In this document: positions 3,192 through 7,479 of the stretch, in pieces
How the letters are laid out: each line of letters opens with the position of its first letter
Numbering within the stretch: the stretch's first letter is position 1
Source: a virus
UHGV virus genome: UHGV-0216076
Direction: 5' to 3' (one strand)
Length of the DNA: 16,618 bases
Position numbers and translations under genes: made by a program
The notes under the pieces: model-generated
Told to the model about the DNA's origin: nothing
Databases searched by the model: none
The model's input: only the letters and a program-made list of their open reading frames with translations

Positions 3192-3799
3192 GCGGCCTCA
3201 CTTCTGCTATTTCGCAGGTCTTTGAGTTTCTGTTGGTACTCTGCCTTGATCGCCTTGCACTCTTCGACAGTCCAGCGATGGCGGTTATGGTTTGATTCGA
3301 TTTCGTCTACTGCTTCCTGCCCGATCCGGTTAATCAGTTCGACGCGATACGGAACGAGATTTCCGCTTTTATGCTGGTTGCACACCACGCATTGCTTGTG
3401 AATATTGCGTTCATCAAATCGGAGTTGAGGTGCCGCAGCAGTTGTCCGGTAATGTCCGGCATCCCACTGAGCAGACGTGAGCGTTCCGCACGAGATACAT
3501 GGTAAGTCGCGGTCTCTTTCTCTGATGAAGGCGTTTACTGCTTGTTGGGCTTGTTTAATCCAGTAACTGCGGGGCTTTAAGGCGAGTTTTCGAATCTTAA
3601 GTTTATCTTTCTGTTTCTGCTCCTCTCGTCGTCGTTTCTTCTCTGCTGCTTTTTCCGCTTTTTCGCGTTCTTTGCTTCGTCGTTCGAGTGCTATCTTTGT
3701 TCCACACTCTGGAGAGCACCACCACTGATTAGCGAATGCAGGGTGAAACCATTCCCGACATTCTTCGTTTTTACATCGTCTTCGCGCTGGTTTAGCCAT
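3188..3799 (-). CDS. ninG: NinG (Rap) recombination-associated endonuclease
   Basis: 203-aa ORF matching lambda NinG ([10 protein letters not shown]...[16 protein letters not shown]...); Cys-rich N-terminus and basic linker. Confidence 0.9.
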
Positions 3800-3974
3800 C
3801 GTCTTCTTCCTCGTACATTGAGCTATTCGGATCGCTCATCAGTTCTGCGCAGCAGTGCTCACACACGTGAACTTCCAGCACATGCAGCTTCTGACCGCAG
3901 TTAGCGCACGTTAAAGCCCGCTCGACGCTTTCTTTCTGGTATTGAAGGGATTGGGATGGGCTAAGCATTAACAA
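3792..3974 (-). CDS. ninF: NinF
   Basis: 60-aa ORF matching lambda NinF ([27 protein letters not shown]...); true start may be the second Met at 3968. Confidence 0.8.
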
Positions 3975-4911
3975 CCTCCATACAAACTTTCACGAATGCC
4001 GTTGCTACTTCTGCATTGATTGCGTTTCCATATCCAATAATTCGCTGATCTTGATTGCGCTTTGCCATTCCTCCCAGTGTGGACTTGCCTCGTCCCAAGC
4101 TTTTGGCAATGCCATTAACCATCGGGAATGAGCCGGGTCTAACTGGACGATATTTTTCATCTCTACAGTAAAGCCAGTCTGCATCTCTCCAGAAGCCGTT
4201 AACCGGTAATGAGTACATAGCTTCACCGTCCCTGGAAGTTTCAAGCAGATTCTTGGGGTTCCGCTCTTGTCTTTTCCGCTGTAGCAATGCGTTGAACCTG
4301 TTGCATCGTTCGCTAAAGGAGTTTGCCATCCCGCTAGTCTCACGCATCCAGATAGGTTCTGAATTCCCCTGCGCGTTTCTGGCTGAAAGTTGATATTTGT
4401 CGTTGGAGTAGGCCACCCAATACAATCGCTGCCTGATGTGCGGAGAACCGAAGCCCGCAGCGCAAATATCGGTACCTGCAGAGGTGTAGTTCGCACCTTC
4501 CAAGTCAGTTTGTACAAGGTCGAGCCAAGCGAGGCCGTCTGCGCTTGCAACCTGTTCGCCAATAACGATGCCAGGATTGCATTTTTCAATAAGCCAGAAG
4601 AATGCCGGCCATAAGTGCCGCTCGTCATCAACCCCTTTTCCTTTGCCTGCCGAGCTGAAAGGTTGGCATGGGCAACTTCCTGTCCAGATACTCTTGTTGT
4701 CTGGCCATCCTGCTTTTCTAAGTGCATAGCTCCAAACTCCGATTCCTGCAAAAAAGTGGTGCTGGGTAAATCCTCGCAAATCACCTGGTGTGACATCTTC
4801 AATACTCCTTTCATCTACATAACCGGGGGCAATTTCTCCAGCGTCAATTAAGTTACGCAGCCATTGCGCTGCATACGGATCTATTTCGTTGTAATACGCA
4901 GTCATCGTCAT
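3961..4911 (-). CDS. Orphan DNA (cytosine-5) methyltransferase, Dcm-like
   Basis: Canonical C5-MTase motif order: I FFAGIGV, IV SCPCQPF, VI GEQV (ENV-like), [26 protein letters not shown]; start set at the Met whose ATG overlaps the ninE stop (ATGA) with GAGGA SD; no restriction endonuclease partner nearby. Confidence 0.8.
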
Positions 4912-5084
4912 TTCCTCGCACGATGTCTTAGCCACCGGATATCCCACAGGTGAGCCGTGTAGTTGAAGGTTTTTACGTCAGATTCTTTTGGGATTGGCTT
5001 GCGTTTATTTCTGGAGCGTTTCGTTGGAAGGTATTTGCAGTTTTCGCAGATTATGTCGGTGAAACTTCGTCGCTGTCGTCTCAT
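4908..5084 (-). CDS. ninE: NinE-like small basic protein
   Basis: 58-aa reading [48 protein letters not shown] resembles lambda NinE as recalled; ATGA overlap with ninB stop. Confidence 0.65.
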
Positions 5085-5521
5085 GCCGCCCTGTCTCCCC
5101 ATCGCGCTTTCCATTCGAGAGCCAGTCGCGCTTCGTCTGACCACTTAACGCCACGCTCTGTACCGAATGCCTGTATAAGCTCTAATAGCTCCGCAAATTC
5201 GCTTACACGCATCCTGCTGGTTGACTGGCCTATTACCACAAAGCCATTCCCGGCAAGGTTAGGAACAACGTCCTGCTGCTTTAATGCTGCTGTAAACACA
5301 CACTTCCAGCTTTCTGCATCCAGCCAGCGCCCATGCCATTCAACCTGACGAGAGACGTCACCAAGGCAAGCCCAAAGCTTTCGATTCTGGTCTAAGCTGC
5401 GGTTGCGTTCCTGAATGGTTACTACGATTGGTTTGGTTGGGTCTGGAAGGATTTGCTGTACTGCGTGAATAGCGTTTTGCTGATGTGCCGGAGATCGAAT
5501 TTCAAAGGTTAGTTTTTTCAT
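5081..5521 (-). CDS. ninB: NinB (Orf) recombination mediator
   Basis: Matches lambda NinB from [34 protein letters not shown]; start at the internal Met with GGAG SD. Confidence 0.9.
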
Positions 5522-5536
5522 GACTTCCCTCTCCCC

Positions 5537-5569
5537 CAAATAAAAAGGCCTGCGATTACCAGCAGGCCT
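5537..5569 (-). terminator. tR2-like intrinsic terminator upstream of ninB
   Basis: Minus strand: hairpin AGGCCTGC/GCAGGCCT (8-bp stem) followed by TTTTTATTT; sits between the replication gene and ninB, where lambda tR2 lies. Confidence 0.6.
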
Positions 5570-5598
5570 GTTATTAGCTCAGTGATGTAGATGGTCAT

Positions 5599-7479
5599 TT
5601 AATACTCTGTCACGTTTTCCTGTCGCCACGCCTCGTCATATTCCGATTTCGGCATATTGGCGATGTAGCTATATGGCGATCCTGATTCAAGTTGCAGGAA
5701 CTGGTGCGATTGCTCGTCAAGGAACAACGGGACACCACCTTCCCAACCTTCACCGTTACGTTGTTTTTCAAGCATCAAAACAGATGCCGGAGATGCCAGT
5801 AGCTGTTCGTCCTTCTCTGACATCTTTTCACCACTCTGAACTCTCTGTAACGCTCTCTCGCGAGCCTTGTTACGCCAGATGATGAAAAGGTTGTCTGTCA
5901 GGTCTGTTATCGCTCCAGAGCCTTTTACGTCCATTTTCCCGGTTGGTTTTTCTTCGCTGTCTCCTTTTCGCGAGTGAGTAACGAGAATGACGTGGGAGTT
6001 TGTTTTGTTTTTGAAGTCGCAAATCGAGTCAACAAACGCCTTCTGCCCGTTATAGTCATCGTCGCCTATGCCACATTTCATCAGGCTGTCGATGATGAAT
6101 AACTGGATGCCGTATCGGCGGCGAGCGTAGTCGAATATTTCGATCAGCCTGTCGGCTTTCGCCGTTCCGGTCAGGCCAAACACCCAAAGTCTTTCGTCAT
6201 AAAATTTAAATGCAGAGTCAATTTCCAGCACTGGCGGCATCTTGCAGCACGTTGCCTGACGGGTAAGTCGCTTAAGGAGAATGCCTGGCTTCAGCTCAAG
6301 TGACGCGATGCACGTCTTCACACCCTGACGCATTGCCTCAAGTGCCATATGCCCGACAACCTCCGTTTTTCCGTGACCGTTCACACCATTGACCAGCGTC
6401 AACTCGGCCTCACGGAACTGGAATTTATCTGCGAGAGATTCCCACGGTGGATTAAACAGATACTGCTGCTTGCCGTAGAAAGCGTTGATAGTGTCCTGGT
6501 AAAACTCTCGCGCGCTGTAGAGTTCTTCAGGATCGAAGTAGGATGCCGTGCCGATGTACTGCCAGATTTCATCCTCGGTAACACCGTTCATCAGGCATTC
6601 GTTGATGTCTTTGTACGGCAGAGTAACAAGACGGCAACGATGTTCACCGAGTCGGCTTGCGATTTCCCTTGCGGCTTCACGACCAACATCATCAACGTCC
6701 ATCGAGATGAATATTTCCTCAAACCTGTCGAGGTTGTGATACTCAAACTCAATCCACTGTTGCTTAGCGCCTTTCCCGCCACCAAACGGCACGGATAACG
6801 CCGAGATGCCGTATTGCGCATAGCTCATACAATCAATTTCGCCTTCGCAAAGTACAACCGCCCTCACGCCAGCGTCCAGAGCCTGCCATCCGAACAGACA
6901 AGGTTCGCAATCACCTTCTGCCATAATGACTTTCTTCCCGTCCGGGCGCTCAGTGCTGATTCGCTTGACCTGCAACAACTCACCATCGCGTTTGTACGGA
7001 AGCACCAGTGCATCAAGTTCTCGTTCTCCATTCCACACCTTGCCGCTGACAACCTCGTAGCGCTTTACGATTTCTGGCGATATGCCACGCGATTGCAGGT
7101 ACTCAAGATGGGATTCTGTTCTGGTAACGTAGCGGGCGATTTTCTTGCGATCAGGTCTGGAGAATTTCTTCTCACGTTTGGCATCGAAATGGTGATCGTC
7201 ATCCTTGATACCGAGAAATGCTTTCGCTTCCTGCATAGCCTGATGCAGGTTAATTCCACGACATGCCATCCACAAATCAAGCATGTCACCGCCGTCTCCC
7301 TCAGCGAAATCAGCCCATTTTTTCTTGCCGCTAAGGTTGACCTTAAGGCTGTTTCCCTTGTCACCGTTGACGTTACCGGCAACCCACTCATGCCCCTCTT
7401 TCTTGCCGTTTGGCAACAGGTGCGGAGCCACCCTGTCAACCTGCGCCCAAAGCAGGTCGCTAAGTTCACTTGGCCTCAT
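5599..7479 (-). CDS. Replication protein: TOPRIM primase fused to an SF4/DnaB-like helicase
   Basis: 626-aa ORF; TOPRIM-like acidic motifs (VLCEGEIDCMSY, ISMDVDDVG); Walker A GVNGHGKT and Walker B LFIIDSL in the C-terminal half; GAGGG SD; occupies the lambda P position. Confidence 0.75.
   Translation of the reverse strand: MRPSELSDLLWAQVDRVAPHLLPNGKKEGHEWVAGNVNGDKGNSLKVNLSGKKKWADFAEGDGGDMLDLWMACRGINLHQAMQEAKAFLGIKDDDHHFDAKREKKFSRPDRKKIARYVTRTESHLEYLQSRGISPEIVKRYEVVSGKVWNGERELDALVLPYKRDGELLQVKRISTERPDGKKVIMAEGDCEPCLFGWQALDAGVRAVVLCEGEIDCMSYAQYGISALSVPFGGGKGAKQQWIEFEYHNLDRFEEIFISMDVDDVGREAAREIASRLGEHRCRLVTLPYKDINECLMNGVTEDEIWQYIGTASYFDPEELYSAREFYQDTINAFYGKQQYLFNPPWESLADKFQFREAELTLVNGVNGHGKTEVVGHMALEAMRQGVKTCIASLELKPGILLKRLTRQATCCKMPPVLEIDSAFKFYDERLWVFGLTGTAKADRLIEIFDYARRRYGIQLFIIDSLMKCGIGDDDYNGQKAFVDSICDFKNKTNSHVILVTHSRKGDSEEKPTGKMDVKGSGAITDLTDNLFIIWRNKARERALQRVQSGEKMSEKDEQLLASPASVLMLEKQRNGEGWEGGVPLFLDEQSHQFLQLESGSPYSYIANMPKSEYDEAWRQENVTEY

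Follow-up and report, generated by a model that had tools for sequence, protein, structure and literature searches.

The stretch of viral DNA analysed here (UHGV virus genome UHGV-0216076, 16,618 nucleotides [nt]; hereafter the window, to whose whole length positions refer unless another locus is named) carries a C5 cytosine DNA methyltransferase gene, whose reading frame (alpha) wholly encloses a second long open reading frame (ORF), here called beta. According to the ORF list of the window both lie on the minus strand, and the nested frame is +1 relative to the methyltransferase frame (4947-4814 = 133 = 3x44+1). An ORF of 269 codons at 4005-4814, inside the methyltransferase ORF, on the same strand and in another frame, had been described in the initial annotation, and this description proved to be correct. 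Across a very large family, purifying selection acts on the two frames alike, and comparison of the relatives strongly supports genuine dual coding of the locus, with products that probably act together as one enzyme. The two ORFs, and the alternative starts of the longer one, are the following:

3961..4905, minus strand: alpha ORF, predicted catalytic subunit of a C5 cytosine methyltransferase, 314 amino acids (aa) from ATG 4905; PF00145, phrog_363
ATG 4911 (316-317 aa) and GTG 4947 (3961..4947, 328 aa), minus strand: in-frame upstream start alternatives of alpha
4005..4796, minus strand: beta ORF, nested +1 frame, 263 aa from ATG 4796-4794; frame open over 4005-4814 (269 codons)

From its ATG, beta spans about 263 codons, equivalent to 84% of alpha, and the nested overlap amounts to ~790 nt. 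This arrangement recurred in all relatives that were opened. In a collection of 166 loci, 160 of which were fetched by homology to alpha from viral contigs and from GTDB genomes of alpha- to epsilon-proteobacteria, the +1 frame was open without exception, with a minimum of 216 and a median of 299 codons (83% of alpha) at protein identities of 45-60%, whereas the +2 frame of the same 166 loci had a median open stretch of only 54 codons. The collection spans alpha-, beta-, gamma-, delta-, and epsilon-proteobacterial genomes, besides viral contigs. Moreover, a protein search with beta returned 2784 homologues at E<=1e-3, typically of ~295 aa, with ~50% identity, 94% coverage and no Pfam domain, and an exhaustive beta profile search returned 15,411 representative clusters at E<=1e-3, 7,038 of them at E<=1e-30; since nearly all match from residue one, each cluster is regarded as the nested ORF called as a gene independently. 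When prophage and contig loci were opened, beta was located in the +1 frame of a C5-methyltransferase ORF in a Salmonella prophage and in a metagenomic contig, and the same nesting was present in phages N15 (gp58) and K1G (Kagunavirus), and in Rhodobacter, rV5-like Salmonella, T4-like Krischvirus, and Burkholderia phages. Among the phage and plasmid tblastn matches checked, no in-frame, single-chain relative of the beta region was found, all being nested in +1.

That an overlap of this length would be improbable by chance had been anticipated in the initial annotation. Indeed, synonymous-codon shuffles of the window alpha never reached an open +1 stretch of 269 codons (0/200; null mean 102), in agreement with the frame being open in 166/166 loci. 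Single loci are less decisive among the relatives rich in guanine and cytosine (GC), as in 78 of the 166 loci at least one of 200 shuffles reached the observed length; the pattern across the whole family, however, is decisive.

Within the two products, conserved and unconserved parts alternate, and it is on this layout that the selection analysis was read:

4732-4755, minus strand: alpha motif I
4654-4680, minus strand: alpha motif IV (PCQ)
4549-4560, minus strand: alpha motif VI
4417-4446, minus strand: alpha motif VIII
4201..4416, minus strand: alpha variable region or spacer, Gly/Arg/Ser/Glu-rich, unconserved, stop-free in the alpha frame
4123..4200, minus strand: alpha conserved C-terminal block, identity 0.54-0.81 in both frames, overlapping the conserved beta C-terminal block
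3994..4035, minus strand: alpha motif X, almost all downstream of the beta stop codon 4005-4007
4434..4661, minus strand: beta conserved N-terminal block (LxxRLQ ... LRASVxRTS), identity 0.46-0.66, overprinting alpha motifs IV-VIII
4209..4418, minus strand: beta GWxTP module region, with GWPTP at 4404-4418 and GWQTP at 4317-4331
4095..4208, minus strand: beta conserved C-terminal block (RLTxxGEMxTGxxxxM ... QL[ND]PAHSRWLM[AG]LPxxW), identity 0.56-0.81
4095-4145, minus strand: beta motif-IX-like element LNPxxSxWLMGxPxxW, the most conserved element of beta, identity ~0.8

Selection was examined by two tests. For the wobble test, third positions of alpha codons were compared, in pairs with the same amino acid, among 119 sequences less than 80% identical. 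Wobble identity was 0.36-0.55 over 4905-4666 and 4035-3964, and 0.65-0.97 over 4665-4396 and 4215-4066, which are the parts conserved in beta; it rose sharply at 4665, reached 0.65-0.83 over the beta N-terminal block and 0.87-0.97 over the C-terminal block, and was back at background (0.48-0.50) at motif X, past the beta stop. The first conserved segment of beta, at 4608-4661, partly overlies alpha motif IV. For the periodicity test, substitutions in 2265 sequence pairs of 72-97% nucleotide identity were assigned to alpha codon positions 1/2/3, alpha position 3 being beta position 2. Upstream of motif IV the distribution was that of ordinary single-frame coding (17/14/68%), and in the alpha spacer it changed to 45/30/25%, as expected for coding in the beta frame (beta position 3 > 1 > 2). 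Intermediate distributions were obtained in the two doubly conserved regions (35/21/44% and 39/21/41%, the latter in the alpha C-terminal block), and after the beta stop the values were 23/23/54%.

With constraint on identical nucleotides in both frames, translation of two different products is to be expected, and a single frame-hopping product would not account for the pattern. In the spacer, this substitution pattern indicates that beta is the selected frame and that alpha is essentially unconstrained apart from staying open. In this regard, no stop codon interrupted the alpha frame of the spacer in 78/78 loci, where beta-synonymous shuffles predicted 16 such loci, and therefore the N- and C-terminal parts of alpha must share one chain. 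Dual coding was one of several options raised in the initial annotation, and with both frames intact and selected in every relative examined it is the option that stands, whereas a frameshifted or mosaic methyltransferase and mere coincidence do not. Likewise, the anticipated switch of homology from one translation to the other was not observed, since homology runs in both frames at once.

Further support for beta as a separate product comes from its start signals, both of which are written within alpha codons:

4805..4810, minus strand: beta Shine-Dalgarno sequence AAGGAG, 8 nt upstream of ATG 4796, within alpha codons E-R-S (GAA AGG AGT)
4794..4796, minus strand: beta start ATG, made by alpha codons Asp-Val (GAT then G)

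An ATG was present at the homologous site in 93/119 non-redundant relatives, and 70 of these 93 also carried a Shine-Dalgarno-like motif. The Asp codon that forms this ATG was GAT in 97 and GAC in 15 cases, compared with 996:1517 at all remaining Asp codons in these genes (Fisher p=1.3e-23). Gene finders also pick ATG 4796, and the exact 263-aa product has been deposited as a hypothetical protein from E. coli HVH 55 and other strains. The first ~45 residues of beta showed no beta-frame constraint.

On its motifs and predicted fold, alpha is a C5 cytosine DNA methyltransferase with an M.HhaI-like, Rossmann-type large domain and no folded small domain. Motifs I (FFAGIGVW), IV (PCQPFS), VI (GEQV), VIII (PHIRQR), and X (GYGNAI) follow one another in a single polypeptide, in the order already given in the initial annotation, and their positions are invariant across relatives; the match to PF00145 (E=4.7e-14) covers motifs IV-VIII only, and that to TIGR00675 (E=4.9e-11) lies under the curated cut-off. 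More than 8000 alpha homologues are named DNA cytosine methyltransferase. Alpha also matches phrog_363 in a single frame and at full length (positions 5-317/327, E=1.4e-92). Such an alignment, together with a nested frame devoid of significant matches, is what the initial annotation expected of a spurious nested ORF; the former was found, and the latter was not, as the nested frame has thousands of significant matches of its own.

The AlphaFold2 model of alpha was made for the 316-aa form from ATG 4911, and is numbered accordingly. It was confident for residues 1-171 and 296-316, and had a predicted local distance difference test (pLDDT) score below 50 for residues 172-295. Foldseek matches in PDB were headed by M.HhaI, DNMT5, M.HaeIII, DNMT2, and DNMT1 (E ~1e-7), the best of them, M.HhaI, over only ~180 columns that correspond to the large catalytic domain. 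PDB 3g7u, a putative DNA modification methyltransferase from E. coli prophage CP-933R, was also among the fold matches (E ~1e-6, 170 columns). Neither the model nor the conservation profile gave any sign, in the alpha chain, of a folded small domain comprising the target-recognition region and motif IX, and motif IX was not recognised there. The alpha spacer is of low complexity, with column identities of 0.04-0.20, abundant Gly, Arg, Ser, Glu, and Gln, few hydrophobic residues, and a length of 34-150 residues among relatives. As an aside, a 196-codon antisense ORF runs across the spacer in the Salmonella homologue (L001 3308-3898, minus strand), and the longest antisense ORF in the window, of 78 aa, is nothing comparable; the Salmonella ORF is probably an effect of GC content.

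Beta, in turn, consists of the unconstrained tail of ~45 residues, conserved blocks, GWxTP modules, and then the C-terminal block. The module count is two in the window and 1-6 in relatives, and it correlates with the length of the alpha spacer (Spearman rho=0.66, p=4e-11). Since module number tracks spacer length, the length variation of the gene is driven by beta, and most differences in length within the family seem to stem from gain and loss of GWxTP modules. In some relatives, four or five tandem modules of ~30-40 aa each are found in beta (L002 2980-4002; L168), and the alpha frame across them is Gly/Arg/Ser-rich filler. The most conserved element of beta has the same spacing as motif IX of M.HhaI, LHPRECARVMGYPDSY (M.HhaI sequence checked and identical to PDB 10mh_A), with L1, P3, M10, G11, P13, and an aromatic residue at 16. 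Furthermore, beta matched two PHROG families labelled DNA methyltransferase, phrog_1008 and phrog_31772 (E=3e-23 and 2e-18).

These are the elements that the initial annotation had picked out in the nested frame, namely two W-x-T-P strings (GWPTP and GWQTP) and a string reminiscent of RLMGFP, which lies within 4095-4145. Its suggestion that they resemble C-terminal elements of some phage C5-methyltransferases was upheld in part: they are the most conserved features of beta, and the spacing of M.HhaI motif IX is there; on the other hand, profile tests were non-significant, and the resemblance to motif IX, as read from sequence comparison, is not statistically established.

Regarding its genomic setting, the methylase is surrounded by NinB, NinE, NinF, and NinG-like genes, which places the locus in the nin region of an E. 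coli prophage that is lambdoid and mosaic. The sequence of the window is 99.3-99.9% identical across 11 complete E. coli genomes. Positions 4903-4947, with which the 328-codon ORF begins when read from GTG (45 nt), are the 3' end of ninE, and this stretch occurs on its own in >1200 E. coli genomes and in many methylase-free P22, Stx, and H-19B phages; for this reason the methylase gene is interpreted as a mosaic insert between ninE and ninF. On the other side, the start of ninF (3792-3974) overlaps the alpha stop. The true start of alpha is probably ATG 4905, which has the better Shine-Dalgarno spacing among the candidates and is the start chosen by PGAP in the 99.9%-identical copy of E. coli APEC O2-211. 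In the prophage of the latter strain, a phage N6-adenine methyltransferase gene stands between ninB and ninE (5340-5867 of that locus); it is absent from the window (compared at 4947-5081), which thus represents another mosaic version of this nin region.

A precedent for this architecture is M.EcoHK31I, an E. coli enzyme that recognises YGGCCR, in which beta is encoded entirely inside the alpha gene in another frame, alpha carries motifs I-VIII as well as X, and beta carries motif IX (PMC2836561; PMC3404938). In that system, methylation in vivo is lost when the start codons of beta are silently removed, and it returns when beta is provided from a second plasmid; internal Met codons can serve as starts of beta, and both chains are required for activity (PMC2836561; PMC3404938). 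The likeness to the window is one of architecture, as judged from the published description: beta is nested on the same strand in a different frame, and alpha, of similar length (~310 aa), has motifs I-VIII and X without IX. Lee, Kam and Shaw reportedly gave, in 1995, lengths of 309 aa for alpha and 176 aa for beta of M.EcoHK31I, and beta of the window is longer (263 aa). There are other differences. M.EcoHK31I belongs to a restriction-modification system, whereas the methylase of the window stands as an orphan within a nin region of lambdoid type; furthermore, our evolutionary analysis of the window family points to a conserved, modular GWxTP part in beta and to an alpha variable region that is a spacer.

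Other split or nested systems offer more distant parallels. M.AquI of Agmenellum quadruplicatum is a natural C5-methyltransferase of two polypeptides, split in the variable region (PMC3404938). Its alpha holds motifs I-VIII and its beta the distal variable region with motifs IX and X, from genes that are essentially consecutive and not nested, while in the window motif X stays on alpha and beta lies wholly inside alpha. Moreover, large-domain fragments of M.HhaI, M.BspRI, M.BsuRI, and M.SssI assemble with separate C-terminal fragments into active enzyme, the best split points falling after motif VIII and before the target-recognition region (PMC3404938). In the window, the conserved modules of beta begin where those split points lie, although fragment complementation concerns single-frame genes that were split artificially and show neither overlap nor dual coding. 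As to gene nesting itself, Rz1 of phage lambda, of ~60 codons, is wholly embedded in the +1 frame of Rz, and the two products form one complex. These proteins are unrelated to those of the window, their function is disruption of the outer membrane, and Rz1 is far shorter than the window beta (~263 codons); spanin architectures have been reviewed elsewhere (PMC6139136).

From these observations, we consider it probable that the locus encodes a dual-coding, two-subunit DNA cytosine-5 methyltransferase of the M.EcoHK31I type. Under this model, alpha (314 aa) would comprise a catalytic large domain (motifs I-VIII) that binds S-adenosylmethionine, a translated and unconstrained spacer, the C-terminal block, and motif X. 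Ribosomes would initiate independently at the internal AAGGAG 4810-4805/ATG 4796 and read the +1 frame to yield beta (263 aa), which would associate with alpha and provide the small domain that alpha lacks, that is, motif IX and probably much of target recognition, so that only the alpha-beta complex would methylate DNA, as with M.EcoHK31I. Translation of beta, its binding to alpha, and its carriage of motif IX and target recognition are what we infer from the comparison. More tentatively, the alpha variable region may be no target-recognition domain but a translated spacer constrained only to stay open, with recognition (tandem GWxTP modules plus motif IX) placed on a separate +1-frame subunit that overprints the catalytic core.

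Several points weigh against a methyltransferase subunit of this kind. Sequence comparison gave no significant link of beta to canonical motif IX or to target-recognition regions. Beta had no match in Pfam or NCBIfam, and its profile had 0 matches among PDB sequences; alignment of the profile to M.HhaI with hhalign was non-significant (E=0.14) and placed another segment (LSARQAKE...) on motifs IX-X. This pairing was dismissed as noise. The AlphaFold2 model of beta alone had a mean pLDDT of 47, too poor for a fold search; such a model fits an obligate subunit, yet it is not evidence for one. Joining beta elements to alpha in a frame-hopping chimera gave no improvement of the PF00145 match. In addition, 26/119 relatives have no ATG where the conserved start lies and would have to initiate at another position, the published account of M.EcoHK31I places the target-recognition domain in alpha, and the methylase has no restriction enzyme beside it in the nin region, again unlike M.EcoHK31I. 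Restriction-linked relatives were sought in E. coli genomes and plasmids, where only prophage or phage-plasmid copies were found.

The main alternative is that beta is real and selected without being part of the methyltransferase, acting instead as a regulator of alpha, in anti-restriction or another early phage function, or as a DNA-binding protein that does no more than share the locus. The selection shown on the beta frame does not tie beta to methylation biochemically, and the missing database matches and low-confidence isolated model would suit such a protein. We nevertheless judge it unlikely, considering that beta was seen only nested in this methyltransferase family (every phage, plasmid, and genome match examined being in the +1 frame), that alpha has neither a folded small domain nor a recognisable motif IX while the most conserved element of beta has motif-IX spacing, and that the one studied enzyme with such a layout requires beta for activity (PMC2836561). 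A single polypeptide made by frame hopping, with a +1 shift of ribosomes or RNA polymerase after motif VIII, possibly a shift back before motif X, and double ORFs that are incidental, would be an enzyme of conventional layout and would account for the canonical genomic order of the conserved elements (alpha I-VIII, then the GWxTP modules and IX-like element of beta, then alpha X). This seems quite improbable, since both frames are selected over the same nucleotides (4665-4400 and 4215-4066) and are thus probably both translated there, the beta frame is open, with a conserved Shine-Dalgarno sequence and ATG, ~125 codons upstream of the required shift point, the alpha frame is held open through the spacer, and the shift needed is +1 and not the common -1. 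A programmed +1 frameshift gene would have a downstream frame that is closed before the shift site and lacks an independent start, and here, with no search made for a shift-prone site, the beta frame already runs open close to the start of alpha and possesses its own conserved start signals.

Virtual single chains were also built. A chimera of alpha I-VIII, beta modules and IX, and alpha X scored 41 bits against Pfam, below the 53 bits of alpha alone, and a short IX+X chimera had no Pfam match. In chimeras from 81 relatives, the single-chain reading was not sensible, as the IX-like element usually abuts YGNAI; in most relatives it ends ~1 codon before it, too close for canonical IX-X spacing. 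Finally, the nested ORF could be non-functional, whether by chance or composition, as a by-product of constraint on alpha, through a sequencing indel (also raised in the initial annotation), or as a decaying frameshifted pseudogene. In its favour, synonymous shuffles already yield fairly long +1 stretches (null mean ~100-200 codons) and in the GC-rich relatives some match the observed length. This explanation is hardly credible in view of the window shuffles, the +1 frame that is open in such diverse loci when +2 is not, the beta-phase periodicity in the spacer, a wobble position frozen exactly over the beta-conserved blocks, and the conserved start codon (p=1e-23), and an indel artefact is contradicted by both frames being intact in the 11 near-identical complete E. 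coli genomes.

The two-subunit enzyme that we favour is poorly reflected in current annotation. In E. coli, PGAP annotates alpha only. In phage K1G (GU196277.1; locus L004), the 2010 annotation lists both a 'putative C-specific methylase' (L004 1413-2237) and a nested 'putative Mte8-like protein' (L004 1501-2193), the latter named DNA methyltransferase in RefSeq; the label 'Mte8' may be a database mnemonic for a named E. coli methylase, through which a relative that is in frame or has been studied by experiment might be reached. Several Burkholderia phage records annotate the beta frame only, as 'DNA repair protein', 'putative metabolic enzyme', or 'hypothetical protein', and in Burkholderia phage phiBtTUL1a (L168 1360-2268) the methyltransferase frame, of 457 codons stop-to-stop, is left unannotated. 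In the literature searched, no paper was found connecting the nested layout to phage methyltransferases. In brief, the layout was already known from M.EcoHK31I, and it is widespread in phages, where it usually goes unannotated.

Fully nested, same-strand dual coding with both products under selection is rare, and is usually doubted in bacteria and double-stranded DNA phages; here the comparative signal for it is clear, and extends across thousands of lineages. As pipelines report alpha only or, in some phages, beta only, the enzyme is probably mis-described in thousands of genomes. In practical terms, alpha cloned alone or synonymously recoded would probably be an inactive methylase, and if beta holds the recognition modules, prediction of the specificity of orphan phage methylases must use the other frame. 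[quoted passage not shown] If recognition does reside in the +1-frame subunit, gain and loss of beta modules (1-6) could retune specificity with the catalytic chain untouched, standard annotation would be leaving out half of the enzyme, and M.EcoHK31I would be the sole studied example of what is among the most widespread long, same-strand dual-coding genes of bacteria and phages.

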